Assembly (NCBI GenBank): GCA_943354875.1 | Contig: CALRDJ010000001.1 | Coordinates: forward strand, 1 to 58,242 | From: Candidatus Levybacteria bacterium GW2011_GWA1_37_16 | GTDB taxonomy: Bacteria > Patescibacteriota > Microgenomatia > Levybacterales > UBA12049 | Reading direction: 5' to 3' | Length of the DNA: 58,242 nt | Shown here: piece after piece, positions 1-58,242 of the stretch | Position numbering within the stretch: the first letter of the stretch is position 1 | How the letters are laid out: every line of letters starts with the position of its first letter | Made by a program: the position numbers and the translations under genes | The notes under the pieces: generated by a model | Told to the model about the DNA's origin: nothing | Databases searched by the model: none | The model's input: only the letters and a program-made list of their open reading frames with translations

Positions 1-21
1 CCTCCCCATTTATTCACTCGA

Positions 22-1137
22 TCATATACGAGTGCAACTTTCATATAACGCAACTGTTTCTTTCGCTTGCTTTTCCCACGAGAAAGCTCTTGAACGCTTC
101 TGACCACCTATTATATACGATTTAAAACTATCTTGGGGTGAAACTATGACATGCTGCATTTTCTCAGCTAACTCCAACATACTTCCGCTCTTAAAATATA
201 AAACGTTTTCTGCGCCAATTTCCTTAAAAACTGGTATGTCCGAAGCAATTACGAGACACTTACTATTCATGGCCTCCAAGAGTGGCAAGCCGAATCCTTC
301 CATCCTCGACGGACATACGAGTGCCCATGCATGACCATACAAATATGATAACTCTTCGTCTGACACTTCACCGAGAAATACTACTGAATCTACTAAACCT
401 AGTTTATTAACAAGTTTCCTTATCTTGCTTTGAAAATAGTCTTCTTTTCCGACAAAAACCATCTTCACTCCAGCTCCACCATGAGTAATCTCAGAAAATG
501 CATGAAGCAAAAGACTGACGTTTTTATGTGGATACATATTTCCTACATACAAAAAATAGCTTTCCAATCTTTCAAGAGCTGTTCTTATTTTAGCTTTACC
601 CTCTCGCACTTGCTCGACTCCTTCATAAATGACCGATATTTTTCCAGAATCCACTTTCAAATGATCGAGTATCTCGCTCTTTGTAGACTCCGAAACTGCG
701 ATAATCCTTTGCGCATTCTCTGCTGCTTTTTGGGTGACATATTTATAACCCAAAAGCTTTGCCTCATAAAACAATTTTGGCAACGTTGACGCCTCTCCGG
801 TGGGATAGTTATGAAGAATAAGATCATGAATAGTCACCACATATGGATTTCCATACCTGATGGGTACTGAGAAATATGGAAAATGAACAAGATCGAAGTT
901 AAATTTATTCAACAACTTTGGAAACTCGAGCTGCTCCTGAAGCGAATGCCAACGAAAATCAGCCAATTTTTTCTCAAACTTACCTTTTGGAATTTGTACA
1001 GTTAAAAATTCATTTGACCTAAAAAAAAGCGTATACTCATTTTTACTATCTACTTTAGACAGCTCCCATACGAGGTTGCGAATATATCGCCCCACACCTG
1101 TCTCATTCCACAGTCTACAATCTATCGCTATTTTCAT
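22..1137 (-). CDS. GT4-family (GT-B fold) glycosyltransferase
   Basis: ORF 22..1188. Donor-domain E-x7-E motif EGFGLPLLEAM. N-terminus MKIAIDC aligns with the other GT4 N-termini in the window. Start moved to ATG 1137, which has AAGGAG upstream and an ATGA overlap with the stop of the upstream gene. Confidence 0.85.
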   Translation of the reverse strand: MKIAIDCRLWNETGVGRYIRNLVWELSKVDSKNEYTLFFRSNEFLTVQIPKGKFEKKLADFRWHSLQEQLEFPKLLNKFNFDLVHFPYFSVPIRYGNPYVVTIHDLILHNYPTGEASTLPKLFYEAKLLGYKYVTQKAAENAQRIIAVSESTKSEILDHLKVDSGKISVIYEGVEQVREGKAKIRTALERLESYFLYVGNMYPHKNVSLLLHAFSEITHGGAGVKMVFVGKEDYFQSKIRKLVNKLGLVDSVVFLGEVSDEELSYLYGHAWALVCPSRMEGFGLPLLEAMNSKCLVIASDIPVFKEIGAENVLYFKSGSMLELAEKMQHVIVSPQDSFKSYIIGGQKRSRAFSWEKQAKETVALYESCTRI

Positions 1138-2018
1138 ACTGTTTTCTCCTTCATAGATATACCCACCATGACCAATTTTGTTATCCAAGATGGATATTTT
1201 TTTTTATAGTGTTTTTTATAAAAAATTCGCATAGCATCAAAACGGGCTTTTTGACTTCGTTTTTTTGTTTCTTCATCAGCAGTAGTAATCTTTTTCGATA
1301 CATCCTTAATTCCTCCTGCTACTCCTTTATAATGCAATATGGAAACTGAAGGAACGAAATAAATCTTCCATCCTTTTTCTTTTAACTCAAAGCAAAAATC
1401 CAAGTCTTCTCCATAAAAAAAATAGTCTTCATCCCACCAACCTATTTCTTCTCCAGCCTTCTTACGCGCTATCATAAATGCTCCAGCACAGGAATCAATC
1501 TCATGAATCTTATTCAGATCTTTAAAGCCCAAATTATATCCATTAAATATTGTTGATTCAGAAAAAATTTTAGAAATACCGGTGAAATGAGCAAATGAAT
1601 TCCAGGGTGTGGGAAATCCTCGGTGCGATGCATCATCAAGTTCTCCACTGGGCAATTCCACTCGACATGTAGCTACTCCTGCAGATGTATATGTATCCAT
1701 AAAATCAACCATTTTTTGTAAAGTATTTTTTCTTATTTCAGTATCAGGATTAAGGAACAGAATATACTTTCCACTCGCCTGGCGAATGCCTATATTATTT
1801 GCCTTAGAAAACCCTACATTTTCTTTATTTAAGATTAACTTAAAATTTGAGACTGGATACTTCGAGCCTGGAATGGTTTCTACGACTCCATCAGTTGAGT
1901 TGTTATCCACGACGATAATTTCAATTTTCAAACTTTTTCCATGCTCGAAAATTGAATCAACACACTTTTTTAAAAACTCTTTTGTATTATAAGAAACAAT
2001 GATAATTGATAAATCCAT
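1134..2018 (-). CDS. GT2-family (GT-A fold) glycosyltransferase, WbbL/rhamnosyltransferase-like
   Basis: IIIVSYNTKEFL...VVDNNSTDG, LNPDTE acidic motif, YGEDLDFCFELKEKGWKIYF. The ATG lies 3 nt after the upstream stop. Confidence 0.85.
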   Translation of the reverse strand: MDLSIIIVSYNTKEFLKKCVDSIFEHGKSLKIEIIVVDNNSTDGVVETIPGSKYPVSNFKLILNKENVGFSKANNIGIRQASGKYILFLNPDTEIRKNTLQKMVDFMDTYTSAGVATCRVELPSGELDDASHRGFPTPWNSFAHFTGISKIFSESTIFNGYNLGFKDLNKIHEIDSCAGAFMIARKKAGEEIGWWDEDYFFYGEDLDFCFELKEKGWKIYFVPSVSILHYKGVAGGIKDVSKKITTADEETKKRSQKARFDAMRIFYKKHYKKKYPSWITKLVMVGISMKEKTV

Positions 2019-2021
2019 AAT

Positions 2022-3239
2022 CTAACGAATAACCGAACTATAAACTTTTTCCAACTTTTCTACAATAGCGTCCCAGTTATAATTTTTTCGAACTAAATCT
2101 GACCCATTTTCGGAGAGCATGTTGTATAGTTTTTTATTAGTCAAAAGCTCCAAAACCTCAGCCGCTAACTCTTCTGAAGTATTACCAATTAACGCATGCT
2201 CTTTATCCTTCCCTATAACTCCCTCAATACCCAGAGATGTAGTAACCACGGGTAGACCACTTGCCATAGATTCTAAAATTTTATAACTCGTGCCTGCTCC
2301 TACACGAATAGGTGCCAATAATGCGAAACTTCTAGAAAATATTTCTGCGGTATTAACTGGGGCATTCTCGTCAAATAGTACTGAGTCGTCATTTGATAGT
2401 GCTTTAATCTCAGCAGGAATACTCCGCCCTACGATCCACAATTTCAATATGCCATTTTTTATCTGCCATTTACTCATAATTCGTGGCCAGATGTCTTTCA
2501 AGATAAATTCCACTGCATCTCTATTTTGTATCCATTTAAAATCTCCAATAAATAATATTCTTTTTTCGTCAATTTTTAATTTTTCCCGCCCCGCTTCGCC
2601 TGCCGAAGAACTTCTCATCTTGAACTTCGTCGTATCTACTCCATTTGGCACTACTACAGCATCGTCCCTATTCATGAGTTTTTTTTCTTCCTCAGAAACT
2701 GCCACAAGCCTATCTGCTTTTTTCCAGAAATATTTCTCCCATTTCTTTATTTTTGCAATATCTATGGACAGAAATGGCCTTAATAAAGGATTAGCATGAT
2801 TTGCATATCGCTCGTAAACGAGATATTCGATGTTGTGCTCTACCAAAACCACAGGTGGCAATCCTGACATATTCATAGGAAGATTGTGCATCACATAAAA
2901 TGTCTCTACATGGATAATATCGTAATTATTTTTTAACTCAGAGTTAATAGCTTCTCCCAAAGCGCTATTTGCATGTCCAGCCAGAAGAAATGGATATGAG
3001 GAAAATCCAGTTTTAAGAATTGTACTAAGAGACCATTGCGTATTTCGAGGGACAGCAATTACTTTTTTACAAATCTTTTGCAGTGCCTCAACATCTTCTT
3101 TTTTCTGATGTGATCTTTTTTCACAAATTAACGTAATCTCGTGTTTTTTAGACAGTAGTTTTAGGATATTATACAGACGAATATGTCCACCAGAAAATAG
3201 TGGGTATGGAAGGTACGATGAGACTACTAAAATTTTCAT
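2022..3239 (-). CDS. GT4-family glycosyltransferase
   Basis: N-domain MKILVVSSYLPYPLFSGGHIR. Donor-domain motif GAGTSYKILESMASGLPVVTT. 4-nt overlap with the upstream gene. Confidence 0.85.
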   Translation of the reverse strand: MKILVVSSYLPYPLFSGGHIRLYNILKLLSKKHEITLICEKRSHQKKEDVEALQKICKKVIAVPRNTQWSLSTILKTGFSSYPFLLAGHANSALGEAINSELKNNYDIIHVETFYVMHNLPMNMSGLPPVVLVEHNIEYLVYERYANHANPLLRPFLSIDIAKIKKWEKYFWKKADRLVAVSEEEKKLMNRDDAVVVPNGVDTTKFKMRSSSAGEAGREKLKIDEKRILFIGDFKWIQNRDAVEFILKDIWPRIMSKWQIKNGILKLWIVGRSIPAEIKALSNDDSVLFDENAPVNTAEIFSRSFALLAPIRVGAGTSYKILESMASGLPVVTTSLGIEGVIGKDKEHALIGNTSEELAAEVLELLTNKKLYNMLSENGSDLVRKNYNWDAIVEKLEKVYSSVIR

Positions 3240-4669
3240 GGATGAGACCGCAGATCAAATAATATGTAGTCCTTAGAGCTGGAGACAATTTTGTATGTCT
3301 TACCGAAATCAAAATCTTTGGGATTTGTATTGAGTAACACCAAGTAGTCTGCGCCCAACTCTATCATCTCTGGCAAGGGATGCTCGAAGCTTGCCCAGCC
3401 ACTTCGACGCGTCTGATACAGAAATGACGTATCTCCGTCATACGGCACTATCACTTTCGCATCTTTCGGAATGAGTGCGTCTACTGCCTTACCGGTGCGA
3501 ACAATTGCTTCATTATTAATGTTGAAATAATCACGGACGTAATACCAACCGAAAAAGACACTAAATGCCGTAATTACAAAAATTAAACTATATGCTATCA
3601 ATTTATTTTTTTGTATATCCAAGATCGTCTGTACCCCTATTCCCATAAACATTGCAAGCGTTGGAATAATCAAGATTTGATAATAATCATGCTGAACATT
3701 TCCTCTTGCAATAACAGTCATATAGATTAAAGAGGAGACAAGAAAGGAATATATAACAAGTATTTTTTTATCTTTTAACGGATATAAAAACCCTGCTACG
3801 AGGAACCCCAAGCCCCAATATCCTGCTATGAGTCGCCCTATGCGATCTGCGAACAGCCAATAGAAAAACGCCCCTTTAAATCTAATCTCTCCACCATTTA
3901 GGAGCCATGCACTCACCGGTATCCCCTCAGGAAACTGCTGCATCCATAAACGCCAAGCCAGAAGTGGGATCACAGCCAGAACTGCAATAAAAACCAGTTC
4001 CCATCTTTTCCATATCCCCCACCCATATCTATTCCATGCCATCACCAAAAGCGGTACCATGAAGAACAGCGCATACGGTTTTATCAGAAAAGAAGCTGAG
4101 ATGAAAAATAATGCAAGCAAGCCATAGATCCACTTATTTTTTTTCGTTGTATCGAGCCATTTGTCGAAAAAGTATGTTCCCGAAAGTACCATGGTCGTCA
4201 TGGAAACATCGGGCAAAAGCGTTCTACTATAGTAGATGCTATAAGGAAGAAAAAGATAGAAGAAAGCAGCAGAAATACCTGCTACATCTGATATATATTT
4301 TCGAAGAATTAAGTACAACATGAACCCTGAAAAAAGTGACGCAAAAATATTTACCAACCTGCCCCACTCCTCAATGGTAAAATGATGGAAAACAACAAAT
4401 AGACCAGCCTGAGCAATATTATAGAGAGGAAACTCTACAAATCGATACCCAAACGGATTTTCCAAGCCTGAAGGAACATTCGATAAGTCGTCAAAACGAG
4501 GATGTAAAATATCAAAACCGTGGTCTACAAAATTACGAGAAACTGCAGAGGTGTCTGCTTGACGCCACGAATGCCAATCAGCTATAGGGTTATCGAATCG
4601 ATATAGCCTGACTATAAATCCGAACGTAAAAATAAGTACCAATACTATAACTTGTAATTTCTTCATCAC
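3236..4669 (-). CDS. GT-C fold membrane glycosyltransferase, PMT_2/ArnT-like (GT39/GT83-like)
   Basis: Many hydrophobic segments. First-loop sequence RLYRFDNPIADWHSWRQADT is typical of lipid-carrier-dependent ArnT/PMT-like transferases. Soluble C-terminal tail. Confidence 0.7.
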   Translation of the reverse strand: MMKKLQVIVLVLIFTFGFIVRLYRFDNPIADWHSWRQADTSAVSRNFVDHGFDILHPRFDDLSNVPSGLENPFGYRFVEFPLYNIAQAGLFVVFHHFTIEEWGRLVNIFASLFSGFMLYLILRKYISDVAGISAAFFYLFLPYSIYYSRTLLPDVSMTTMVLSGTYFFDKWLDTTKKNKWIYGLLALFFISASFLIKPYALFFMVPLLVMAWNRYGWGIWKRWELVFIAVLAVIPLLAWRLWMQQFPEGIPVSAWLLNGGEIRFKGAFFYWLFADRIGRLIAGYWGLGFLVAGFLYPLKDKKILVIYSFLVSSLIYMTVIARGNVQHDYYQILIIPTLAMFMGIGVQTILDIQKNKLIAYSLIFVITAFSVFFGWYYVRDYFNINNEAIVRTGKAVDALIPKDAKVIVPYDGDTSFLYQTRRSGWASFEHPLPEMIELGADYLVLLNTNPKDFDFGKTYKIVSSSKDYILFDLRSHP

Positions 4670-4676: not shown

Positions 4677-7600
4677 TTAAGGTTTTACCGGTACAATCTC
4701 GCCAGTTTTTATCTTGGTCAATTCAGTTAGGCTACCATTCTCATTGAACTGCAAAACTCTTCCGAGATTTGTACCTTTTATGGAAAAGGCTTCTTCTGGA
4801 GAACCTACTTGATAAATAATCATGTCCTTATCCTGAAACACAAGCCAAACCGCGTCAGAAAGACCAACTGGAAATAACCAAGCATCACCATTTCTGATCG
4901 GCACATTCACAAAATATAATGTCTCTGTCTCTTCTTTAGGATATCTGGCATATGTATAGTTTATGGACGAGAGGAAATTCTGAGCTTTTAGCCCTGCACC
5001 TGCCCAATCCGCCTGCAATTTTTGTAGCTGAAAAAGCTGAAGAGATGAAAAGAGAATCACCACGAAAATAACCACTGAAACAGCTATTTGCCTACCATTT
5101 ATCAACAGATGCTCGTACATTTTTCTTAAAAATACTATAAGAATTAACACAAAACCGAAAGATGCCAAATAACTATAACGAGCGGTAATATTTCCCAGTC
5201 CTAGGAATGGCAAAAGGGCTATGATGAAAAATAGCAATCCGAAAACAATAACTCTCTTATCATCTTGAGATAGTTTTGCCATAAGTACTTGATATAATTT
5301 TATCGAACCAATTACGATACAGATCATTATTAAAGCAGTGATAAAGAAATGAACTTTAGATATACTTCTTAACTTCTCAAAAAGCGGTAAAGACGAAGGA
5401 CCTAATAGAGCAAGGGTAAAGTAGCCGATACTATTTCCTATCGTATTAAATGGTAATTTTAAGATATTGTAACTATAGTCTCCGTTAAACCAATGACTGT
5501 TTGAAAATAAACGAAGTATAAAATAAGGAAGAAGTGGAGAAAACAAAATTAAATAGGTTCTTTTCTGCATCAGTGCATTCCTCAACGATTTCTCGATAAA
5601 CACTACGTCATAAAGTACTAATAGAAGCGGCGCTACCACACCAAGTTCGTGAAACAAAGTGGCGATAAAAAGAGATAGAACGGTCAATACTAAATAAATG
5701 CTTTTCTTTTTTTCTTTCCAAAGGGCATAAAGTACCAAACTCAACAATATGAAAACCGCATTAAAAAGATGGCCTGTTCCTGATGTCCATAAAATTAGCT
5801 CCGAAGGCCCACTCAGTATAAGAAATAATACTGCAGCGCTTACTGAGAGAAATACGCTCTTCAATACTTTTATTCCGAGCATAAAGATAAGAACTAAGGT
5901 AGCAAACGCAAGACTGAGAGAAACGAAGTGATATATGGTTTGATTTAACCAAAAAAATGAATACATGAGATCAAAGTAAACCTTAGTTCCAGGACGATAG
6001 AAAAACCCATCTGATTGGATAAAATAATGGGTAAGGGTAGAGAGTGAGCTACATGAACCACAATCAGCAGCCCACCTAAGCCAAGTAAAATCATCTCCCA
6101 CAAAGTAATTTGATGTAGTCTGTGAATATAAAATAAAGGTTAAAAGAAATAAATATATAACTATTGCTAATTTTGAAATTATAATTTTCTTAATTTCCTC
6201 AAGAATATCAAGATCTTTATCTTTATATAAATTCACAAGTCCCATAACTACTCCAGTAAGCATCCAATACACAAATGCCACTTTCGATGCCTCAAAGACA
6301 TCGATGAGCACTGCATTAAGAGCTAACCCTACTGTTCCAGCAGCAAAGCCGACCATGAAACTTTTCGCAACTGGATCATCTACTCGCGGAAGGACTTTCT
6401 TAATAGATATACCGACTATGAGAAATATTGAAGCAAACGAAATAAAACCTAAAATTCCTGACTCTCCTAAGATACGGAGATAATCATTGTCTACGGCCAA
6501 ACTTACTGACCCATATCCGCTTCCGAGCAGTATATTTCTATTAAAAGCTGCGATCGTACGTGGCCATTCTCCCTGAGTTCGCGTAGTGAATGAAAGATCG
6601 TAGGCTTTCGCTTTTTTTATGATAAATTCACCGTCAAAATAACTGATTCGCGCAGAAGTCGTACTAGGCTGATTCGGTCTTTCTTGAAAAAATTCTTTTA
6701 ATGTTTCCCTAACTGGTGAAAGCGGTAAGTTAATATAACTTGATCCCTGGGGAAGACTTTCTCCGTTTGAATTGCTGGGAATTACGATCAATGCGGCCTC
6801 TTCTGGCAAATTAGCATAAGCCACTATAGCAGAAGAACTAGCTATCAATGGGTCACGATCACCTACGGCCTGTTTTACGACTACTTTATCTTTAAAATAC
6901 TCTTTCTGTACTTTTTTTACCTGGCCGATCGTAACTCCCGTCCGTGCATCAAGAAGCACATCGACTTCCGTAACAGTACTATTAAATCTCTGCAAGAGAC
7001 TCGGGAAGAAAATAAGAAAAAATATCGTCAAAACTCCCAGAGACAGAAGAACTAGTTTTTTCTTTTGGATGATAAGTAGCATAAGAAGTGCTACTAAAAG
7101 TACTACTACTGACACGCGAGAAACTGTCATAAAAAGCAGAGCAAAACCGAGTGCTGAAGCAATCAGAAGTAGCGCTTTTGCCAGTAAATTTTTAAATCCA
7201 AATACTAAACTTACTGTTATCGGTATAATGAGGACTAAATATGCAGCCAAATCATATTGACCACCAAACGTAGATGGAACTCTGGATAACTGAGATAATC
7301 GAATAGGAATTCCCTTTGCAAACTCCTCATTCATAGTCAAATACGCAGGAAATCCTAAATACTTCTGACCAAATCCATACCCCACAACTCCCATAAGCAC
7401 GAATGATAGTAAAACAGCCACGTGCGATATAAACTTTTTATCCTTCATACCAGAATAGGCGATAAAAAAGAGCGACATATATTCTATACGCCTCAGGAGA
7501 CTGAGAAAAGCAACGTTGGAGAATACATTTGAAATGGTCGGAAAAATAAGAAGAACCCCGTGAAGTGTGGCAATACCTCCTATGATCCAGAAAATCAAAA

Positions 7601-7823
7601 TCGGCATTGTCAAAGGAGTTTTGATCGATATTTTTTTTCTAAAAAATAAAAACAGCCAAAGAGCTATCACTAAAACGACCAGAAAGTCTTCTGCGCGTAT
7701 ATATACCCATGTATTTTGTATGTCGATGATGGGAAGCTTCGGATACAGAGGAATAAATGCGAGAAGAAAAAGAGTAAATACAAACAAAATATTCTCAGAG
7801 AAAAAATGCACTATTTTTTTCAT
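4677..7823 (-). CDS. Fusion membrane protein: N-terminal O-antigen-ligase-like (Wzy_C) domain plus C-terminal second polytopic GT-C-like domain
   Basis: 1048 aa. Wzy_C-like core LLFMTVSRVSVVVLLVALL and closing motif LLGSGYGSVSLAVDNDYLRILGESGILGF. The second half starts with a TM helix followed by YFVGDDFTWLRW...FFYRP, a motif shared with ORFs 21134..24007 and 46838..48517. Confidence 0.6.
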   Translation of the reverse strand: MKKIVHFFSENILFVFTLFLLAFIPLYPKLPIIDIQNTWVYIRAEDFLVVLVIALWLFLFFRKKISIKTPLTMPILIFWIIGGIATLHGVLLIFPTISNVFSNVAFLSLLRRIEYMSLFFIAYSGMKDKKFISHVAVLLSFVLMGVVGYGFGQKYLGFPAYLTMNEEFAKGIPIRLSQLSRVPSTFGGQYDLAAYLVLIIPITVSLVFGFKNLLAKALLLIASALGFALLFMTVSRVSVVVLLVALLMLLIIQKKKLVLLSLGVLTIFFLIFFPSLLQRFNSTVTEVDVLLDARTGVTIGQVKKVQKEYFKDKVVVKQAVGDRDPLIASSSAIVAYANLPEEAALIVIPSNSNGESLPQGSSYINLPLSPVRETLKEFFQERPNQPSTTSARISYFDGEFIIKKAKAYDLSFTTRTQGEWPRTIAAFNRNILLGSGYGSVSLAVDNDYLRILGESGILGFISFASIFLIVGISIKKVLPRVDDPVAKSFMVGFAAGTVGLALNAVLIDVFEASKVAFVYWMLTGVVMGLVNLYKDKDLDILEEIKKIIISKLAIVIYLFLLTFILYSQTTSNYFVGDDFTWLRWAADCGSCSSLSTLTHYFIQSDGFFYRPGTKVYFDLMYSFFWLNQTIYHFVSLSLAFATLVLIFMLGIKVLKSVFLSVSAAVLFLILSGPSELILWTSGTGHLFNAVFILLSLVLYALWKEKKKSIYLVLTVLSLFIATLFHELGVVAPLLLVLYDVVFIEKSLRNALMQKRTYLILFSPLLPYFILRLFSNSHWFNGDYSYNILKLPFNTIGNSIGYFTLALLGPSSLPLFEKLRSISKVHFFITALIMICIVIGSIKLYQVLMAKLSQDDKRVIVFGLLFFIIALLPFLGLGNITARYSYLASFGFVLILIVFLRKMYEHLLINGRQIAVSVVIFVVILFSSLQLFQLQKLQADWAGAGLKAQNFLSSINYTYARYPKEETETLYFVNVPIRNGDAWLFPVGLSDAVWLVFQDKDMIIYQVGSPEEAFSIKGTNLGRVLQFNENGSLTELTKIKTGEIVPVKP

Positions 7824-8671
7824 AAAACGTTCAATGATCTTTTATATGTAGAGATAAGATAAGTATCGCGAGTAATATGCCCAATTGCAATGGCAATTAT
7901 CGCCTTACAAATTAAAAATAATCTTACAACATAATATTCTACCATGCTTTTATGTTTTAAGAAAAAATAAGAAATACCTGCATAGATATTCACAATCGCA
8001 AATGTCCTACTTGAACTTCCTTGACCGACGTGAACAACTCGTGCCGAGGGAAAGTACTTAACTCTCATTCCAAGCCTATGAACCCTGAAGCAGAACTCCA
8101 TATCTTCTACGTACATAAAAAAATGCTCGTCAAAACCCTCTAGTTTCCCAAACAGATCAGATTTCACAGCCATAAACCCTCCACTCACCCAATCAACTAA
8201 CTGAGTCTTTTGCATTACGGATATCATATTTTCTCGTTGTTTTCCAAAAAACAAAATTTTAACCACTGTCCAGACAGAATAAAAACTGCCGAATGATTTT
8301 TGAATCGTTTTATTTTCATTTTCTAGTACCCCACCCAACACGCCGAGAGATTCTTCTTCCCGTAAGAGCTCTATCATCTCAGCAATACCATTATCCAGAA
8401 GTTGAGTATCAGAATTGAGAAATATCAAATACTGACCCTTAGCCACTTTCGAGGCGGTATTATTTGCCTTCGCAAAACCAAGATTAGTATCGTTTTCTAT
8501 AAGGATTGCCTCTTTAAACTTTGACCTGACCATTTCTATGGAACCATCAACTGAAGCATTATCAACTACAATAAGCTCAAAATTAAGGGTCTTGAGGTAC
8601 TTATATAAAGAAGACAGACAAGACTCCAGCAGCTTTTTGGTGTTATATGAGACTACAATTACCGAAACCAT
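7820..8671 (-). CDS. GT2-family glycosyltransferase
   Basis: VSVIVVSYNTKKLL...VVDNASVDGS, LNSDTQ, YVEDMEFCFRVHRLGMRVKYF. Paralog of 1134..2018. Confidence 0.85.
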   Translation of the reverse strand: MVSVIVVSYNTKKLLESCLSSLYKYLKTLNFELIVVDNASVDGSIEMVRSKFKEAILIENDTNLGFAKANNTASKVAKGQYLIFLNSDTQLLDNGIAEMIELLREEESLGVLGGVLENENKTIQKSFGSFYSVWTVVKILFFGKQRENMISVMQKTQLVDWVSGGFMAVKSDLFGKLEGFDEHFFMYVEDMEFCFRVHRLGMRVKYFPSARVVHVGQGSSSRTFAIVNIYAGISYFFLKHKSMVEYYVVRLFLICKAIIAIAIGHITRDTYLISTYKRSLNVL

Positions 8672-9252
8672 CGTGCACGTCCGAGCTTATAATGGGGATC
8701 TTTTAAAGCCCGCTCTCCTATTTCTTTTGCTGGCACACCACCAACGATAGCAAATTCGGCAACATCCTTGGCAACTACTGCACCCGCAGCAACCACAGCG
8801 CCTTTTCCTATTGTTACCCCAGCCTGAATAATGGCTCGAGGACCGATAAATACATAGTCATGAATAATGACTGGCTCTGTAATAGGCGCAAAGCTTTCAC
8901 TCTGAAGGTCATGCTCGGATGTATAAATCATAACCTCCGATGCTATATCAACATGATTTCCGATATGAAGTTTTCCTCTTCCATCAAGGACTGCACCTTC
9001 TCCAATTATCGTATCGCTACCAATGGATATATTTCCAAGCGTGTAAAATACAGCCCCCATATGAATAGTCGAGCTGCTATCAATCCTAATACCGATCAAC
9101 TGATAGACCAACCGACGAATAGGATAGATAGGTATGTATCCGACTAAATGAACCAGGTATAAGATAAGTTCGATCAATATATTTACAACTCTATTGATTC
9201 CTTTTCGAAATACCTGTTCGGATGTTAACTCATTTCCCATTTTATCTTTCAT
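8659..9252 (-). CDS. Hexapeptide-repeat (left-handed beta-helix) sugar O-acetyltransferase, WcaF/LacA-like, with N-terminal TM helix
   Basis: Repeats IGSDTIIGEGAVLDGRGKLHIGNHVDIASEV and VFIGPRAIIQAGVTIGKGAVVAAGAVV. Hydrophobic N-terminus NILIELILYLVHLVGYIPIY. Confidence 0.8.
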   Translation of the reverse strand: MKDKMGNELTSEQVFRKGINRVVNILIELILYLVHLVGYIPIYPIRRLVYQLIGIRIDSSSTIHMGAVFYTLGNISIGSDTIIGEGAVLDGRGKLHIGNHVDIASEVMIYTSEHDLQSESFAPITEPVIIHDYVFIGPRAIIQAGVTIGKGAVVAAGAVVAKDVAEFAIVGGVPAKEIGERALKDPHYKLGRARWFR

Positions 9253-10922: not shown

Positions 10923-11549
10923 TTAATCTTTTGGAGTAATGAATTCTTTTGACAAAATACTGCCATACTCATCTATATTCAATTTCCATGCATGCCCTTT
11001 AGGCAAGTAGCCTGGAATTTCATCTATATCTGCTCTCGTCATCAGAGGAATTTGAGTTCCAGGATTTTCCAGCTTAAACATGAGGAAAAATATCGGATCT
11101 CCATGACTTACGAGCGCTGTAGTAGGACTCTGCGCAACTGCATTTTTAAAAACCTCCATCATTCTTCTTCCTATATCTTCACGCGATTCATTTCCAAGCT
11201 TTACAAACTCTTCACTATACTCATCGGTATTTTTTTTATATAAGTCTTTCAGAAAACTCATCTTTTTTCCTTCTACTGCAGGCACACAAGAATCTTTTAA
11301 GTCTGGCTCTTCTTCTATGCCAGAGATGCTCCATTCCTTAGCTAGAATCATCGCTGAATCGACAGCTCGCTCAAGTGGACTGGAGATAATTTTCTCAGGA
11401 ACTTCTCCTTTTTCATGTATTTTAATAGCTAAGCTTTTCAACTGAGCTCTTCCTTCATCTGTTAAATGCATTACTATCCCACTCCCATACACAATATCAT
11501 CGGGATTATGAATTTTCCCATGCCTGATTAAATAAATAGTTTTATTCAT
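10923..11549 (-). CDS. Histidine phosphatase superfamily protein (phosphoglycerate-mutase-like branch)
   Basis: N-terminal catalytic RHG motif IYLIRHGK. Second catalytic His in LVSHGDPI. Confidence 0.75.
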   Translation of the reverse strand: MNKTIYLIRHGKIHNPDDIVYGSGIVMHLTDEGRAQLKSLAIKIHEKGEVPEKIISSPLERAVDSAMILAKEWSISGIEEEPDLKDSCVPAVEGKKMSFLKDLYKKNTDEYSEEFVKLGNESREDIGRRMMEVFKNAVAQSPTTALVSHGDPIFFLMFKLENPGTQIPLMTRADIDEIPGYLPKGHAWKLNIDEYGSILSKEFITPKD

Positions 11550-11760
11550 GTTTTTTATCTCTATATTGGAGAAAAATGGCTATAAGAAAGAACCCTACTG
11601 CGTACCAGGTAAGTCGTTCTGCAGTAAAAAATACCCATTCAGAAAAAAGCGGGATTGAAAGAAGAAGACAGGCACTTCCGAATATCACAGCAATCCTACT
11701 ACTTTTTTTATACATAACCATGACCACAAAAAATAAGAAAACGATGTCTTGAGGTTTCAT
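11542..11760 (-). CDS. Small hydrophobic membrane protein, function unknown
   Basis: ORF 11542..11820. ATG 11760 (MKPQDIVFLFFVV) is preferred because the 11761..11822 stretch carries a good promoter for the divergent gene. Roughly three hydrophobic segments. Confidence 0.45.
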   Translation of the reverse strand: MKPQDIVFLFFVVMVMYKKSSRIAVIFGSACLLLSIPLFSEWVFFTAERLTWYAVGFFLIAIFLQYRDKKHE

Positions 11761-11761
11761 A

Positions 11762-11790: not shown

Positions 11791-11822
11791 GCGTAGGTGG
11801 ATAAAAGCATCATATAGCATAG

Positions 11823-36007: not shown

Positions 36008-36016
36008 AATTTGACA

Positions 36017-54121: not shown

Positions 54122-55104
54122 ATATTTTTTAAAACTGAGGTATTAATCCAGCTACTATAACGCTCGTCATTTGGATTAGAAAACATATTTTTCTGTAATG
54201 CATCGAAGATTTCAGAAATCCCTTCTTTCACTGTTTTTTGAGGTACAAATCCGATCGTGTTTTTAATTTTTTCGAAAGAAACTTTATAGTCTCGGTTATC
54301 TGGCGTTCCACCTTTTTTTTCAACTTTCATATCAGGAAAAATCTCTCTCACCAAGTCAACTAATTGTTTTTTTTGTAAATTTTCAGTCCCTACATTGAAT
54401 ACTTCCCCTGTCACTTTTTTTCTATCTGCTTCCATAATCGCATATAGTGCATTTGCCGCATCTATCGTATGTGTATATGGACGCCATGCGTCTTCCTTGT
54501 AAAGCAAAATCTGCTGACCCACAAATGCATCACGTACCATTTCATTAATCAGTAAATTAAAGCGCATTCTACCAGAAAGACCGAATATGGTTGCTAATCG
54601 AAGGATGGTGACACCAAAATCCTCTGAACTTAAAGACAACAGGGTATTTTCTGTATCTATTTTAGTTTCTGCATACAAAGATAAGGGTTTTAATAGGTCG
54701 GTTTCAACAGCAAGTGTTGTAGCGTCTGAAATACCATAGTTACTACATGTAGATGAGAATATGAATCTCCCGACTCCTGCAGCTCTCGCAACGTCCGCTA
54801 ATTGAACTGACGCTTCGAAGTTAATTTCTTTAGTAAGATTTTCATCCACTTTACACGCAGGCTCTCCCACCAATGCTGCCAAATGAAAAACAACCGATAC
54901 TCCCTCTATGACTTCTTCGACTAGCTCCCTACTTCGAACATCCCCAACGACTAGAGAAAAATGCGGATGAGAAACAAACGGCAGCAGACTTTCACCGCCA
55001 AACATGAGTGCATCCAGTCCGACCACCTCATGTCCTTTCTCTAGTAGTTTTCCCGTTAAAACACTTCCTAAATATCCGGCTGCACCGGTAACAAGAATCT
55101 TCAT
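54118..55104 (-). CDS. Extended SDR NDP-sugar epimerase/reductase
   Basis: ILVTGAAGYLGSVL, SSTCSNYG, catalytic YAETK. Confidence 0.7.
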   Translation of the reverse strand: MKILVTGAAGYLGSVLTGKLLEKGHEVVGLDALMFGGESLLPFVSHPHFSLVVGDVRSRELVEEVIEGVSVVFHLAALVGEPACKVDENLTKEINFEASVQLADVARAAGVGRFIFSSTCSNYGISDATTLAVETDLLKPLSLYAETKIDTENTLLSLSSEDFGVTILRLATIFGLSGRMRFNLLINEMVRDAFVGQQILLYKEDAWRPYTHTIDAANALYAIMEADRKKVTGEVFNVGTENLQKKQLVDLVREIFPDMKVEKKGGTPDNRDYKVSFEKIKNTIGFVPQKTVKEGISEIFDALQKNMFSNPNDERYSSWINTSVLKNI

Positions 55105-55106
55105 AA

Positions 55107-55970
55107 TTATTTTTTAAAAGACGCCAATTGACCAATCATGAAACCCGAAAACCCAACAACCTGCTCCATTCCCAACATGACTATCATACCACAGGTTAAT
55201 TGTGGGTTTTTTAATAATTTTTTCCAATTCCGGTAAAAAGCAGGACGAAGAAAATAAATAACTTGTCGACCTGTTGTACGAATTGAATGTTTCTTCAAAT
55301 ACGAAGATAGGCATTTCCCGTAATAGTATTTCTTCCATAATAAATCATATAAACTCAGTTTTCCTTCGTCATGAATTATAAAACTTTTAATTCTTTCAAT
55401 CTGATATCTTTTTTTAATTCGCTGAGGTAAATCCCAATCTTCAGGCCCCGTAAGCTTCTCATCGTACCCACCCATTTCCCAGTATGCATTCTTTTCGAAA
55501 AACCGTGCTGCCTCAATATCTGCATCGCCTACATAACAGCTTCTTTCTAACGCTTTACACATGGCCCAAAACCCTTTTCCTATACTTTTTTCGCCTATTA
55601 CAACTGCTTTAATATTTGAATTTTTGGTAATTACCTCTATGCAGTCCTTAACTACATCTTTTTCCAATATCATATCTGAGTCAGGTACGAAATAATAATC
55701 TCCAGTTGCTTTTTTCGCTGCAAAGTTTCTCTGTGCACTCCGCTCCGGACCATATGAATAAATATTTTTCGTGAACATCCTAGCTATCTCTACTGTCTTA
55801 TCAGTAGATGAGTTATCTACAACTATGATCTCAACGTTTTGGTACGATTGATCCTTAATACTCTTTAGATGCTCCAGAAGTGTTCGAGATGAATTCTTCG
55901 TATGGACTAATACAGAAACTAAAGGATTTTTTTTCATAAGATTGATATTAATTGTATCAGACAGTACCAT
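55107..55970 (-). CDS. GT2-family glycosyltransferase
   Basis: VSVLVHTKNSSRTL...IIVVDNSSTDKT, VPDSDM. ATG 55937 (MKKNPLVSV) is the alternative start. Confidence 0.8.
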   Translation of the reverse strand: MVLSDTININLMKKNPLVSVLVHTKNSSRTLLEHLKSIKDQSYQNVEIIVVDNSSTDKTVEIARMFTKNIYSYGPERSAQRNFAAKKATGDYYFVPDSDMILEKDVVKDCIEVITKNSNIKAVVIGEKSIGKGFWAMCKALERSCYVGDADIEAARFFEKNAYWEMGGYDEKLTGPEDWDLPQRIKKRYQIERIKSFIIHDEGKLSLYDLLWKKYYYGKCLSSYLKKHSIRTTGRQVIYFLRPAFYRNWKKLLKNPQLTCGMIVMLGMEQVVGFSGFMIGQLASFKK

Positions 55971-55995
55971 GGTTTACCATAAAAATCTAAATTAC

Positions 55996-58227
55996 TTATA
56001 ATTCAGGCAACCAGAGAAAGTTTTTGGGTATATCTTTATTATAAAATGGGTATTTATTCATATTTAATGGAATAGAATCAGAGGAGTAAATCTCCACATA
56101 CTCAATGAAATATTTTTCTTGAGGAAAACAATTATCCAGCTGAAAACTCACCGTAGCATACTTTGCTTTTTCAGGAGCACTACCCTCAGCTGTTAAGTTA
56201 TCCCATTCCGCTTCTGGATCAAGTAGACCAGAAACTATAGTCTTCATTTTTTTCTTATCAGACTCATAGAAATCTAATCTAAAAAATCCATCACGATATG
56301 ATTTATAAATTGGATTAGCTGTTCTTCTTACAGACCCGATAAGAGAATACCATTTTTTACCCTCAACAGAAAAATATGATGAAACTATCTGTGTTTCATT
56401 CTTACAACCAGCGGTATCTATAGAAAAATTTCCAGATTCAACATCATGATTAAGTTTTTCTGGAAATTTTATTCCAGGCCAAATTTTTATATAATCTCCT
56501 TCTGTAGATTGAAAATCAAACCTAGAAACCAAATTTTTATCCCTATGCTCTACGACTTCTGGCAATTTTGCTATAAAAATCGCCCGATCGGGTGATTGCC
56601 AAAAAGGCTTAACAAATTCTTTTATTCTATATGATCCAATTTCGTTTAAAACGAGACTTGTATGACTATTTTCTATGATATCCCAAAATAAATCGTCGTT
56701 AAAAAATGCTTCCTGAACTAACCCGCTGTCAATCCATCTCTGACTGTTAACTAAGGATGTATAGAGCGAACTGACTACTACCCACCCAGCACCAGCCTCT
56801 TGTAATTCTCCAATTGATAAAAGTCGGGTAGATCCAACTGGACTTATATCTATTTCTTGTATATTTTGAGTCAAAGGAAGGTTTACGGCAGAAACAGCTA
56901 CCCTGCTACCTGCTGGCAAATTATGAGTTAGCCATTCAGAAGCCAATGTCTGGTTCAGGGGTCTGGAGAAATATAACGATGTTAAAAAACTATTTTTTAA
57001 CGATGGCCACACGAGACATAATAAAACCACTATTAAAACGGCTCTTCTTAAAATCCTAAATTTAATAAATCGAGTAAGATCAAAAACGAAAAACGCTGGA
57101 AATAGAAGAAGAAATGGGATAACTGGAGTATAGTAACGCGCAGACGACGGAGCTGCAATCATCAAAAACATAATGAGCACAGGAAAAATAATTGATCCTA
57201 AAATCAAAGTGCTCTTAAAATTTCTAATAAGTGAGTACGCAAAACCTAAAATAATTGCGATGGTTAATAGATCGCCAATTGCATACCTTACAAGATAGTA
57301 TGATCCAACTAACGACCGGTGGTAATCGTAGTTCATCAACGTAGAAAAAGGAGCCGTGACACCAAACCTCTGAGAATCATATAAGTATTCCTTATGAAAC
57401 TCGCTAAAGTCAAAGACTATAAAAGGATTTAAGACAATAAAAGTTATTACGGCAATGATAAGAGAAGATAATAATTTTTTCCCAAAAAACAAAAGTATTT
57501 TTTTATAAACTCCCCCTCGCCCACCAAGAACTGACAAGAGATGACAAAGCAAAAATAATGGCAAGACATATATAAAGTACTTTACAGAGAATGCTAATCC
57601 TAATCCCAATCCAGTCAGAATATACGAACGTAGTGAATTACTCTTGATAAGATTTATACTTAATAACACTGATAAGGAAGCGAAAAATGAAGCGGGAGCA
57701 TCAGCGAGCACCAGAACGCTGCTTAGGACATGACGATAATTAACTGCTGTAAGCAAAGCAGCTATCAATCCTACCTTTTCGTTGTACAGTTTTTTCCCGA
57801 TTAAATATATTGGTATAACTGTCAACGAACCAAGAAGAGCTGTGATGTATCTTGTCCAGTATAAGTATTGATGTGGTGCCTTTAAAGAATATACAAATGC
57901 TTCGTAAAATCCTACGAATCCCCTATCCACAACTACATCCAAATGAGAGAAAAGAAATACGAAAAAAACAAAAGGAAGAAGGAGTATAACAATAATTACT
58001 GAATATAAAATATGAAGTAGCCCACCATATGAATACAGTATTGGCGCATATTTACCTTGAGTTATAAACTGATGAACAGAACCATATATAGTAGGCTCGT
58101 CAGGATGATTAGCAGGAAAACCTGGGTAGATTCCTAAAAATCTGATAAAACAAGCAAATAAAAAAATTAAGAATATCAGACCTCGAGAATGGGAGTATCT
58201 TCGCTTAATAAAACGCAAACTCACCAA
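55996..58227 (-). CDS. GT39/PMT_2-like GT-C membrane glycosyltransferase with C-terminal CBM-like jelly-roll domain
   Basis: 743 aa. First-loop sequence FIRFLGIYPGFPANHPDEPTIYGS carries the DE motif. Many TM segments. C-terminal segment GKKWYSLIGSVRR...GFFRLDFYESD...AKYATVSFQL resembles CBM4_9-type modules. The start is TTG/GTG, and the frame stays open to the window edge, so the true start may lie outside the window. Confidence 0.65.
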   Translation of the reverse strand: MVSLRFIKRRYSHSRGLIFLIFLFACFIRFLGIYPGFPANHPDEPTIYGSVHQFITQGKYAPILYSYGGLLHILYSVIIVILLLPFVFFVFLFSHLDVVVDRGFVGFYEAFVYSLKAPHQYLYWTRYITALLGSLTVIPIYLIGKKLYNEKVGLIAALLTAVNYRHVLSSVLVLADAPASFFASLSVLLSINLIKSNSLRSYILTGLGLGLAFSVKYFIYVLPLFLLCHLLSVLGGRGGVYKKILLFFGKKLLSSLIIAVITFIVLNPFIVFDFSEFHKEYLYDSQRFGVTAPFSTLMNYDYHRSLVGSYYLVRYAIGDLLTIAIILGFAYSLIRNFKSTLILGSIIFPVLIMFLMIAAPSSARYYTPVIPFLLLFPAFFVFDLTRFIKFRILRRAVLIVVLLCLVWPSLKNSFLTSLYFSRPLNQTLASEWLTHNLPAGSRVAVSAVNLPLTQNIQEIDISPVGSTRLLSIGELQEAGAGWVVVSSLYTSLVNSQRWIDSGLVQEAFFNDDLFWDIIENSHTSLVLNEIGSYRIKEFVKPFWQSPDRAIFIAKLPEVVEHRDKNLVSRFDFQSTEGDYIKIWPGIKFPEKLNHDVESGNFSIDTAGCKNETQIVSSYFSVEGKKWYSLIGSVRRTANPIYKSYRDGFFRLDFYESDKKKMKTIVSGLLDPEAEWDNLTAEGSAPEKAKYATVSFQLDNCFPQEKYFIEYVEIYSSDSIPLNMNKYPFYNKDIPKNFLWLPEL

Positions 58228-58242
58228 AATAAAGCTACTTAA

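Follow-up and report, generated by a model that had tools for sequence, protein, structure and literature searches.

The window that we analysed is a complete contig of 58,242 bp from a bacterium of tiny genome in the Levybacteria, a group of the Microgenomates within the CPR, and its ORFs are tightly packed, with overlapping genes along the whole contig. Of the 53 coding sequences, 52 are non-nested ORFs of 100 residues or more; the other is a membrane ORF of 92 residues (11542-11820, minus strand), which occupies the single intergenic gap longer than 100 bp. When all ORFs were scanned with Pfam and NCBIfam, about 50 of the 53 proved glycan-related, and a sugar-related assignment was missing only for the 92-residue ORF, a His_Phos_1 phosphatase (10923-11549, minus strand) and a membrane protein of 117 residues at 14031 (genes are named here by their first window position). 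Nucleotide-sugar GT4/GT2 enzymes number ten, equal to the count of GT-C transferases. An earlier note on this DNA had taken all but about four of the genes to be sugar-related, had raised a CPR host as a possibility and had the locus running past both edges. Each of these proved correct: longer contigs carry the locus 720 bp farther to the left and at least 10 kb farther to the right, where it goes on with further genes of the same types.

The left 11 kb (22-10972) is a core of nine genes, all on the minus strand, each of which recurs, with the gene order unchanged, in 71-80 of 80 related loci. These are the best 80 loci fetched, of at least 556 species-level genomes that encode a relative of the 4677 protein, and nearly all are from Levybacteria or other Microgenomates. 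The core contains six GT4/GT2 genes, one acetyltransferase and a Wzy_C-like::GT-C fusion together with a GT-C of the PMT_2 type. From the left end these are GT4a (22..1188; Glycos_transf_1 7e-30; homolog in 78/80 loci, same order), GT2a, a glycosyltransferase of the cytoplasmic EPS type (1134..2018; Glycos_transf_2 2e-29; 77/80) with EPS/teichuronic glycosyltransferases as its best NCBIfam matches, GT4b (2022..3239; Glyco_trans_1_4 4e-20; 77/80) and the 477-residue GT-C (3236..4669; at least 7 TM helices), whose homolog, when present (77/80 loci), in every case directly follows the fusion gene (4677..7823). Beyond the fusion lie GT2b (7820..8671; Glycos_transf_2 1.8e-25; 76/80), a hexapeptide-repeat acyl/acetyltransferase (8659..9252; Hexapep 4.5e-14; 72/80), a GT4 (9249-10370; Glycos_transf_1 5e-38; 78/80) and a stand-alone GT4 N-terminal half (10367-10972; Glyco_transf_4 1.4e-8; 71/80). 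GT4a is the final core gene still on the contig.

The core signature gene, 4677, encodes a protein of 1048 residues with 19 TM helices. Its N-terminal domain (residues ~1-535), which has a beta-rich outer loop (~280-410), is Wzy_C/O-antigen-ligase-like, and its C-terminal domain (~540-1048) is a PMT_2-related GT-C in which D577-D578 is invariant. The protein matched an IctB/Wzy_C-like profile at 8e-8 and PF04932 was matched by 27 of 28 members of its family (best 5.5e-6); 4677 itself scored 16 bits against Wzy_C, under the Pfam cutoff of 31.7. Several homologs carry the PGAP name 'O-antigen ligase family protein'. By Foldseek all of the top 19 matches were GT-C proteins, and the match to WaaL was weak (TMt 0.50, E 2.4). 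The C-terminal domain aligned with the 46838 family by hhalign (probability 99.7%, E 1e-25). Hence, the earlier listing of 4677 as a GT-C holds for its C-terminal half only, the protein being no plain GT-C, and the Wzy_C/O-antigen-ligase-like N-terminal half contradicts the claim that the locus has no polymerisation gene.

The same note had reported no initiating enzyme, which is true of the window. In 57 of the 61 related loci having enough flank, the core continues with a ManC-like gene, then a small PglC-type phosphoglycosyltransferase (PGT; Bac_transf, E 2e-62) and then a DUF4012 gene. These three share one strand and lie a median of 2.2 kb past the GT4a homolog, with RecO next. Three other assemblies of this species give a 720-bp extension to the left, which shows an extra GT4, the one that precedes ManC-PGT in relatives. 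All available contigs of this species end before the expected place of the PGT, which was not seen, and a metagenome scan found no contig spanning the left end. Because the PGT follows the core in so many relatives, the missing initiation enzyme is most likely a contig-end artefact, with the starter enzyme just past the left end, and we infer that this particular genome encodes it.

No ORF of at least 100 residues in the window matched Bac_transf, Glycos_transf_4, Polysacc_synt, ABC2_membrane or Wzz at E<=0.01, in agreement with the earlier report that the window lacks Wzx, an ABC-2 exporter and Wzz. Neither the window nor the flanks of the 80 relatives, taken to +-10 kb, yielded a flippase of the Wzx, MurJ, ABC or GtrA kind.

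The window is unusually rich in GT-C transferases, as had been noted from the letters alone. All ten of the ORFs named then encode polytopic proteins (7-19 predicted TM helices), each with acidic residues after TM1, and Pfam, paralogy, profile-profile comparison or AlphaFold/Foldseek supported the GT-C fold or family for all ten. PMT_2 matches were above the gathering score for 3236 (2e-9), the 691-residue 24809 protein (24809..26884, minus strand; 3.5e-9), 43858 (43858-45276, minus strand; 2.3e-10) and 55996 (55996..58242, minus strand; 4.4e-12), the last of which also matched PMT (7e-10), again above the gathering score, and has lost about 10 codons of its 5' end at the contig end (758 residues on the longer contig L005). 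The 42444 protein (42444-43892, minus strand; PMT_2 0.0068) is a paralog of 43858 (E 1e-63), and 46838 (46838-48517, plus strand), which has a Q-Q-D-E-W motif, belongs to a family in which 9 of 34 members match PMT_2 (best 1.5e-8).

Two GT-Cs resemble AftD. The 14386 protein (14386..17787, minus strand; 1133 residues, 11 TM helices, a large extracytoplasmic domain) matched GT-C_AftD at 2.1e-11, above the gathering score, and has homologs in 19/80 loci. The 12421 protein (12421..14034, minus strand; 537 residues) had no match in Pfam; its AlphaFold2 model (pLDDT 84, pTM 0.86) matched AftD (6w98, E 9.6e-8) and then AglB, STT3, PglB and ArnT by Foldseek. A G-D-W-P motif after TM1 is invariant, and homologs are present in 40/80 loci. 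Between the two genes lies 14031 (14031..14384, minus strand), a conserved protein with 3-4 TM helices and no match in Pfam, NCBIfam or PDB; a similar gene occupies this place in all 12 loci that have both neighbors, and its product may be an adaptor or a lipid-sugar flippase. The remaining GT-C, 21134 (21134..24007, minus strand; 957 residues), ends in a CBM32/F5_F8 lectin-like domain (F5_F8_type_C 3e-12). Its N-terminal membrane domain has an invariant W-T-D-D-W-D motif and aligned with the 4677 C-terminal domain by hhalign (probability 96%, E 4e-9, DD motifs aligned); Foldseek also ties both domains to the GT-C group. Only 20 homologs of 21134 were found in a search of 5.8 billion proteins.

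NCBIfam and structure matches placed all four of the GT2s previously called Dpm1/GtrB-type in the ArnC/GtrB/PgfS/Dpm1-like group. These are 24043 (24043..24807, minus strand; 254 residues, no TM helix; best NCBIfam matches ArnC 1.4e-17, PgfS and AglJ), 29876 (29876-30856, minus strand; 2 C-terminal TM helices), which matched solved structures over its full length (ArnC 4e-45, GtrB 1e-39), the GtrB/PgfS-type 41507 (41507-42406, minus strand; PgfS 1.4e-64, full length) and the Dpm1-like 46131 (plus strand; NCBIfam). Three of the four adjoin GT-C genes, which implies that sugars are added on the outer face of the membrane. A natural protein (P0253) fuses a 24043-like GT2 to a 21134-like GT-C in Rosetta stone fashion, and 24043 is probably the polyprenyl-phosphate-sugar synthase serving 21134. 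The pair of 29876 and the polysaccharide-deacetylase-family gene 30881 (30881-31657, minus strand; Polysacc_deac_1 2.5e-17) resembles ArnC-ArnD. GT2 41507 and the two paralogous GT-Cs form one stretch (41507..45276).

The accessory genes total eight methyltransferases, two DegT aminotransferases, a split transketolase and SDRs. Next to the core, 10923..12443 contains species-specific spacer genes: the phosphatase (homolog in only 1/80 loci), the 92-residue ORF and a class I methyltransferase (11823-12443, plus strand; 19/80). Two SDR sugar epimerases/dehydratases (17742-18809 and 18812-19864, minus strand) and a GT4 (19920-21137, plus strand) are 60-78% identical to collinear orthologs in JACPLF010000006.1; collinearity with a second Levybacteria species extends over window 1-29 kb. 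The block 26886..29901, of mixed strand, has two methyltransferases (26886, 28271), a truncated UDPG_MGDP_dh-like ORF (27487) and a TviC/GalE-like epimerase (28972, plus strand). In 31705..37275 are methyltransferases (31705, 34261), a NanM-like sugar O-methyltransferase (35033; TIGR04371 1.3e-14, above its cutoff), a GT2 (32461), a truncated UDPG dehydrogenase-like ORF (33462) and a DegT aminotransferase (36055). An NDP-sugar cassette on the minus strand (37268..41510) encodes an SDR (37268), a split transketolase (C half 38110, N half 39030), a 4,6-dehydratase-like SDR (39856) and an NTP_transferase (40800). An RmlD-like reductase (45250) and a methyltransferase (48514), both on the plus strand, bound the block 45250..49137, and 49138..55970 (minus strand) has a methyltransferase (49138), a GT4 (49868), SDRs (51021, 54118), a GDP-mannose-4,6-dehydratase-like gene (51970), a DegT aminotransferase (53039) and a GT2 (55107).

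From the gene families and their folds, the synteny and the GT2::GT-C fusion, we think it probable that the contig is most of a Levybacteria envelope-glycan super-locus, in which a lipid-carrier core is joined by outer-face decoration modules; substrates, order of action and acceptor are predictions. In the core layer the glycan would be started on polyprenyl diphosphate by a PglC-type PGT beyond the left end, where, as in relatives, another GT4, a ManC-like nucleotidyltransferase and DUF4012 should also lie. Six or seven cytoplasmic GT4/GT2 enzymes plus the acetyltransferase would extend it, and after flipping across the membrane the Wzy_C-like::GT-C fusion, working with the adjacent PMT_2-type GT-C, would polymerise or ligate it. 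Counting against this scheme, the flipping step has no candidate flippase of known family in the window or in the flanks searched in the 80 relatives. The second layer would be the accessory modules of ~11-58 kb together with those of the right-hand continuation (10 kb or more): SDRs, DegT aminotransferases, the split transketolase and methyltransferases may supply modified NDP-sugars, the four ArnC/GtrB/Dpm1-like GT2s may charge polyprenyl monophosphate with sugars, and eight further GT-Cs may add these singly, on the outer face, to the glycan or to other envelope acceptors. That all modules act on one product is putative.

The one-sugar-at-a-time decoration proposed earlier thus survives as outer-face addition by the GT-C and lipid-sugar genes, and not as a machine that stands alone without initiation or polymerisation. 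A self-contained, purely extracytoplasmic system of GT-Cs and polyprenyl-P-monosaccharides, with no Und-PP assembly, polymerisation or ligation, would fit the ten GT-Cs, the four synthase-like GT2s and a window devoid of PGT, Wzx, ABC-2 and Wzz genes, but is very improbable in the face of the ten nucleotide-sugar GT4/GT2 enzymes, the Wzy_C-like domain and the PGT that lies just past the contig end in relatives. The Wzy_C family includes O-oligosaccharyltransferases, and the 4677 domain could be one of the PglL/WsaB type acting on S-layer, pilin or other surface proteins, with the PMT/PMT_2-type GT-Cs O-mannosylating proteins directly. The 55996 match to the protein-O-mannosyltransferase family PF02366 besides PMT_2, the JGI name 'protein O-mannosyl-transferase' on one 4677 homolog and a PglC-type PGT like that of bacterial protein glycosylation loci are consistent with this. 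However, we consider protein O-glycosylation unlikely as the main role, since the locus contains no gene for an acceptor protein (S-layer, pilin), the AftD-like enzymes and the GT-C with a CBM32 domain suggest that the acceptors are glycans, and PMT_2 is non-discriminating, also covering ArnT-like lipid and glycan transferases.

A possible, if doubtful, alternative to the two-layer super-locus is that several independent pathways with different products (for example wall polysaccharide, lipoglycan and at least one Gtr/Arn-like modification system) lie side by side in a streamlined genome. A modular layout speaks for it: the core is in 71-80 of the 80 loci versus the less frequent AftD unit and 12421 family, 21134 is rare in the whole database searched, a 5-gene insertion interrupts synteny with a sister species and there are several separate NDP-sugar cassettes. 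Against this are the tight packing and overlapping genes, and the core, AftD unit and 21134 module keep their relative order in the second species. Independent pathways are compatible with most of the two-layer explanation, the sole difference being how many end products there are.

ORF calling on the window, which is a complete contig of even GC content (35-40% along its length), gave 52 non-nested ORFs of at least 100 aa plus a 92-aa membrane ORF located in the sole sizeable intergenic gap, in agreement with an earlier count of 53 CDS. No tRNAs, Rfam matches or internal repeats of 40 bp or longer were found in the window. By Pfam scans of every ORF (ORFs are named by start coordinate; NCBIfam was used for the assignment of 35033) the inventory consists of six GT4 genes, one being a stand-alone N-terminal half, eight GT2 genes, eight methyltransferases (seven class I enzymes plus one NanM-like sugar O-methyltransferase; 11823, 26886, 28271, 31705, 34261, 35033, 48514 and 49138), nine SDR epimerase/dehydratase/reductases, two DegT aminotransferases, one NTP-transferase plus a split transketolase, one hexapeptide acyltransferase, one polysaccharide-deacetylase-family enzyme, two truncated UDP-sugar-dehydrogenase-like ORFs, one His_Phos_1 phosphatase and ten large polytopic proteins. 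The presence of eight methyltransferase genes in one glycan locus implies a heavily methylated product. All parts of the locus belong to known kinds; what is new is the locus architecture, a conserved Wzy_C::GT-C fusion, GT-C families outside Pfam coverage and a missing flippase.

All ten polytopic proteins have 7-19 TM segments (Kyte-Doolittle scan) and acidic residues after the first TM helix, and AF2 predicted a helical bundle for both 4677 and 12421. Acidic motifs are invariant in three families (D577-D578 in 4677, D31 in 12421, D47-D48 in 21134), and D32-E33 of the 46838 family is at least 90% conserved. Five proteins exceeded Pfam gathering scores: 3236, 24809, 43858 and 55996 (PMT_2, with 55996 matching PMT as well) and 14386 (GT-C_AftD), and 42444 is a paralog of 43858 (E 1e-63). 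Single-sequence and profile searches of the PDB gave nothing useful for 4677, 12421, 46838, the 21134 membrane domain or the small TM protein encoded between 12421 and 14386, and thus fold and profile-profile comparisons were used instead. Protein 12421 has no Pfam match and about 480 homologs from Levybacteria and Gottesmanbacteria, all lacking annotation. A confident AlphaFold2 model made from 30 homologs (pLDDT 84, pTM 0.86) had mycobacterial AftD as its best PDB match by Foldseek (E 9.6e-8, TMq 0.58), followed by AglB, STT3, PglB, DPY19 and ArnT; this clear AftD-like fold was preferred over a weak match to a model called 'MmpA trehalose lipid delivery' (33.5 bits vs 210). The relatives of 46838 comprise 932 representatives, and PMT_2 was matched by nine of 34 sampled members (best 1.5e-8). 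In hhalign comparisons the C-terminal half of 4677 aligned with the 46838 family over 416 columns (probability 99.7%, E 1e-25) and with the N-terminal membrane domain of 21134 (probability 96%, E 4e-9), the latter alignment pairing the invariant WTDDWD of 21134 with VGDDFTW of 4677.

The earlier note had claimed ten GT-C enzymes, and all ten stand on the evidence of Pfam (five proteins), paralogy (42444), Foldseek (12421), family PMT_2 matches (46838) and hhalign together with Foldseek (21134 and the C-terminal half of 4677); one amendment is needed, as 4677 is not a GT-C alone. Two GT-C families are added, 12421 and 21134, whose listed members lack any GT-C match in Pfam, with 46838 as a partly recognized third. 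Such a density of GT-C enzymes is remarkable for a minimal genome. Residues 362-528 of 21134 matched TIGR03025, a phosphoglycosyltransferase (PGT) model for EPS (E 9e-4, 18.6 bits vs 295); as the match spans only the N-terminal TM part of the profile, 21134 was rejected as a hidden PGT.

The four GT2 proteins earlier assigned as Dpm1/GtrB-type kept that assignment upon comparison with ArnC, GtrB, PgfS and AglJ. Over its full length 29876 matched the solved structures of ArnC (4e-45) and GtrB (1e-39) and has two C-terminal TM helices, and 41507, with 2 TM segments, matched PgfS (1.4e-64) and also ArnC. In 24043 and 46131 only the catalytic domain was matched (ArnC 1e-17 and AglJ 1e-17, respectively) and TM segments are absent, which makes these proteins Dpm1-like. 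GT-C genes directly adjoin three of the four lipid-sugar synthase genes. Moreover, P0253, an ENA metagenome protein of 1162 aa, is a natural fusion of a 24043-like GT2 (aa 1-241, 54% identical to 24043) with a 21134-like GT-C/CBM32 protein (aa 235-1161, 45% identical to 21134) and thereby gives Rosetta-stone support for a functional pair of donor synthase and GT-C. From the adjoining ArnC/GtrB/Dpm1-like genes and this fusion we infer that the GT-C enzymes use polyprenyl-phosphate-linked sugar donors. A PF01522-family deacetylase gene adjoins 29876, an arrangement that recalls ArnC-ArnD.

The 1048-aa protein encoded by ORF 4677 (4677-7823, minus strand) bears directly on the earlier claim that the locus lacks a polymerisation gene. 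Its N-terminal half matches the IctB family, which is Wzy_C-like (8e-8). Weak matches to Pfam Wzy_C (PF04932) were obtained for 27 of 28 proteins of the family (best 5.5e-6); the score of 4677 itself, 16.1 bits (E 0.01), is below the cutoff of 31.7. PF04932 is also present in the precomputed annotation of 9 of 120 homologs among the matches listed, and PGAP named several homologs 'O-antigen ligase family protein'. In the structural model (pLDDT 70) the C-terminal half is better resolved and the N-terminal half is of low confidence. The top 19 PDB matches by Foldseek were all GT-C proteins (STT3, PglB, DPY19, AftB and Pmt) with probabilities of 0.9-1.0 but weak E values (0.01-0.9), and WaaL 7tpg (TMt 0.50, probability 0.60, E 2.4) and RodA (TMt 0.47) were also among the fold matches. 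Several lines of evidence (IctB, PF04932, PGAP names and fold matches) point to a Wzy_C/O-antigen-ligase-like N-terminal half, which would contradict the absence of a polymerisation gene. Residues 444-446, in the segment matching the end of the Pfam Wzy_C profile, are an invariant V-D-N, probably at the position where WaaL/PglL-type enzymes carry a catalytic H-N. The fusion is conserved at 54-59% identity over its full length (mean column identity 68%), and at least 556 species-level genomes among the GTDB species representatives encode a relative, which makes it a marker gene. Levybacteria make up nearly all of the best 80 of these genomes, joined by some Gottesman-, Roizman- and Woesebacteria, a distribution that places the host in the Microgenomates group of the CPR.

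In the loci of these best 80 genomes we called ORFs and searched them with every window protein. Nine genes (window 22-10972) form a core with a defined order: GT4a (22-1188), GT2a, GT4b, GT-C 3236, the fusion, GT2b, acyltransferase, GT4c and the GT4 N-half, each found in this order in 71-80 of the 80 loci. The last of these (10367-10972, 201 aa) has only the Glyco_transf_4 domain and is a separate ORF beside a complete GT4 in 71 of 80 loci; it may be a split or heteromeric glycosyltransferase. Between the core and the AftD-like genes this species has the His_Phos_1 phosphatase and the 92-aa membrane ORF (10923-11820). Only one of the 80 loci has a homolog of the phosphatase, and the position is taken by an ArnC-like GT2 in many relatives.

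Upon clustering of the related-locus ORFs having no window homolog, the three largest clusters proved to lie just downstream of the core and were assigned by Pfam as a ManC-like NTP-transferase (360 aa), a small Bac_transf PGT (221-238 aa, E 2e-62) and a DUF4012 protein, the last followed by RecO in 25 loci. DUF4012 is enriched in CPR and linked to EPS clusters (Meheust et al., PMC6744442). Of the 61 loci whose flank is long enough, 57 have the PGT gene on the same strand, at a median distance of 2.2 kb from the GT4a homolog on its far side, and the equivalent position in the window falls off the left end of the contig. The Pfam scan proposed in the earlier note indeed found no initiating PGT, Wzx or ABC exporter among the window ORFs, there being no match at E<=0.01 to Bac_transf, Glycos_transf_4 (MraY/WecA), Polysacc_synt (Wzx), ABC2_membrane, Wzz or LCP. 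The lack of initiation read from this is most likely a contig-edge artefact, and pathway steps missing at a metagenomic contig edge should be checked against the synteny of relatives before being read as biology. Three other assemblies of the species reach only 720 bp further left, and this extension contains the further GT4 that lies ahead of ManC-PGT in the related loci. An exact-match scan of JGI metagenome contigs gave no contig spanning the left break.

The assembly breaks recur. The window and a second contig (L002) end at the same base, and three assemblies (L001:12020, L003:12015 and L004:7646) end inside the second GT4, just before the expected ManC-PGT-DUF4012 genes. An internal repeat was rejected as the cause, since the window contains no repeat of at least 40 bp; the breaks may instead reflect differences between strains or a repeat in another part of the genome.

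The claim that the locus extends beyond both edges was upheld. On the right side the final window gene lacks about 10 codons, and a 47-kb contig from this species carries the locus on for 10 kb or more. The right flank (L005:1-9975, on a contig that runs 5.7 kb past this segment) encodes two more ArnC/GtrB-like GT2s, an MBOAT protein (500 aa) adjoined by a 311-aa ORF without annotation, DUF5667, DegT and GT4 proteins and a PMT/PMT_2 GT-C. To the left are the extra GT4 of the 720-bp extension and, in relatives, the continuing core, where the cluster stops with DUF4012 and RecO some 4-5 kb outside the window. We estimate the total locus at 73 kb or more, which would be about 8-10% of the genome if this resembles the 762-kb complete Levybacteria chromosome CP066685.1. 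The flanks of the related loci reach only the equivalent of window coordinate ~17.8 kb, and the notion that genes beyond 18 kb are absent from relatives and therefore hypervariable was discarded because a second species is collinear to about 29 kb. Apart from a five-gene insertion, JACPLF010000006.1 follows the gene order of window 1-29 kb, with proteins 38-78% identical, and thus the combined architecture of core plus GT-C modules is not unique to this genome.

Among the accessory genes, the two ORFs resembling UDP-glucose/GDP-mannose dehydrogenases (27487-28245, 252 aa, and 33462-34250, 262 aa) lack the C-terminal domain. As 27487 is equally truncated in another species (L089:634-1383, 249 aa, 60% identity), it is probably not a pseudogene. 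The cassette at 37268-41510 encodes an NTP-transferase, a 4,6-dehydratase-like SDR, a transketolase split into separate genes for its N and C halves, and an SDR, a set that points to an unusual NDP-sugar, either branched or extended by two carbons. The transketolase pair recurs in a shorter form at L089:6256-7376.

A three-gene unit at 12421-17787 consists of the AftD-like GT-C, a small TM ORF and the Pfam-less GT-C 12421, with gene ends that overlap or abut. The 12421 family is present in 40 of the 80 loci and an AftD-like gene in 19, and in all 12 loci having both a small ORF (105-126 aa, 3-4 TM segments) with conserved P-Y-x-N and A-E motifs lies between them. This small membrane protein locked between two GT-Cs is, with the ordered core, a further addition to the picture of the locus. 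The window version (117 aa) has no relatives in Pfam, NCBIfam or the PDB, and no family support was obtained for reading either this protein or the 92-aa membrane protein as GtrA, SMR or GacJ-like. Indeed, no window ORF matched the GtrA family (PF04138). Pfam scans of all ORFs bore out the earlier observation that no Wzx-type flippase or ABC-2 exporter can be found in the window: Wzx/MOP (Polysacc_synt), MurJ, GtrA, ABC-2, LCP and Wzz proteins were found neither in the window or annotated right flank nor among representatives of nine recurrent or membrane-protein unassigned ORF groups from the 80 related loci, and neither ABC2_membrane nor ABC_tran was matched in the window or right flank. An EamA transporter was found in only five of the 80 loci. 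In other systems the flippase gene can lie at a distant site in the genome, as for CflA (PMC9574508).

The nearest counterparts are mycobacterial arabinogalactan/LAM assembly and the rhamnose-rich wall polysaccharides of Gram-positive bacteria. In mycobacterial and corynebacterial arabinogalactan and LM/LAM synthesis WecA initiates on a polyprenyl-PP carrier, on which cytoplasmic glycosyltransferases begin the glycan, and many GT-Cs (Emb, AftA-D, Mpt), several of them clustered in one region, extend it outside using polyprenyl-P-sugars (Ppm1 and DPA donors). The Levybacteria locus would share this plan and has AftD-like enzymes (14386 by Pfam, 12421 by Foldseek) and Dpm1/Ppm1-like GT2s. Unlike the mycobacterial arabinan machinery, the window has no family match to a UbiA-type DPPR synthase or to DprE1/2, and neither an ABC exporter nor an LCP ligase was found. 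Further differences are that the PGT of the relatives is of the small PglC type rather than WecA, that at least ten GT-Cs lie in a single contiguous locus, that a Wzy_C-like fusion is present, and that the host is a CPR bacterium. The transmembrane glycosylation systems (GtrA/GtrB/GtrC, CsbB/GtcA/YfhO and L. lactis CsdAB and WpsA-J; PMC9574508, PMC8035078) resemble the locus in their repeating unit of a GtrB-type GT2 plus a divergent GT-C (here 24043-21134/24809, 41507-42444/43858 and 46131-46838), and their GT-Cs are likewise recognizable mainly by fold. The succession of polymerase WpsI and GT-C ligase WpsJ in L. lactis (PMC9574508, PMC8035078) parallels the polymerase-like and GT-C halves of 4677, but in the Levybacteria both are fused in one 1048-aa protein, far more modules are present per locus, and no GtrA (PF04138), Wzx or rhamnan ABC transporter was detected.

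Two other systems are partial matches. Wzx/Wzy-dependent O-antigen, capsule and protein O-glycosylation loci have a PglC/WbaP PGT, Wzx, and Wzy or WaaL/PglL with Wzy_C, and are similar in the small Bac_transf PGT (of the relatives), the run of GT4 and GT2 genes, an acetyltransferase, a Wzy_C-like membrane protein and NDP-sugar genes in the same locus. They differ in that Wzx and Wzz were not found here and the Wzy_C domain is GT-C-fused, falls below the Pfam cutoff and has V-D-N at the probable position of the H-N of WaaL/PglL. The Arn (L-Ara4N) pathway of lipid A modification is similar in the ArnC-like GT2 beside a deacetylase of ArnD's family, in the DegT aminotransferase, UDP-sugar-dehydrogenase-like and SDR genes close by, and in PMT_2, the family of ArnT. 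It differs in that formyltransferase or ArnA and ArnE/F are lacking, the dehydrogenase-like ORFs are truncated and Levybacteria presumably have no lipid A.

The most probable mode of action joins PGT-initiated polyprenyl-PP pathways with the three- and four-component GT-C systems (PMC9574508). The PGT would make a polyprenyl-PP-sugar that the core GT4 and GT2 enzymes plus the acyltransferase would extend in the cytoplasm, the ManC-like gene suggesting GDP-mannose as one donor. A flippase would then move the intermediate across the membrane, where the Wzy_C-like domain of 4677 would polymerise or ligate it, with the fused GT-C domain and 3236 taking part in this series of steps. Meanwhile, the accessory modules (window ~11-58 kb and right flank) would make amino, deoxy, branched and methylated NDP-sugars, the four GtrB/ArnC/Dpm1-like GT2s would load polyprenyl phosphate and the remaining GT-Cs would transfer the sugars outside. 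The model takes gene families, folds and synteny from the data; its substrates, acceptor and order of steps are inferred. As end product, a protein glycan, a lipoglycan or a wall polymer would each be possible.

A more encompassing reading, which we regard as rather unlikely, is that Microgenomates build a heavily methylated, complex arabinogalactan/LAM-like envelope heteropolymer by use of a Wzy_C::GT-C 'polymerase-ligase' and a novel flippase machinery. The conserved bifunctional 4677-type protein would then replace separate Wzy and LCP/WaaL steps, the flippase machinery would not be homologous to Wzx, GtrA or ABC exporters and might include the small TM protein, and GT-C-rich modules occupying roughly 8-10% of a ~0.8 Mb genome would diversify the surface that contacts host or phage. 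To our knowledge episymbiosis has not been established for Levybacteria. The genomes of CPR bacteria are tiny and their envelopes hardly known, and a prior description of GT-C, O-antigen ligase or mannosyltransferase loci in CPR/Patescibacteria was not found in the searchable literature, where the remark of Meheust et al. on DUF4012 was the sole connection. The allotment of at least 58 contiguous kb to glycan synthesis implies a central role of the surface glycan in the biology of the organism, be it in attachment, in evasion of phages or in keeping the envelope intact.

Many of the related records (L009, L015, L016, L018, L024 and others; L027; P0138) are titled with organism names that are hard to credit, among them 'uncultured Gammaproteobacteria bacterium', 'Candidatus Pacearchaeota archaeon' and 'Candidatus Saccharimonadales bacterium'. 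These records encode the Levybacteria-type core cluster at 50-58% identity, and the titles are probably placeholder or wrong taxonomy labels.
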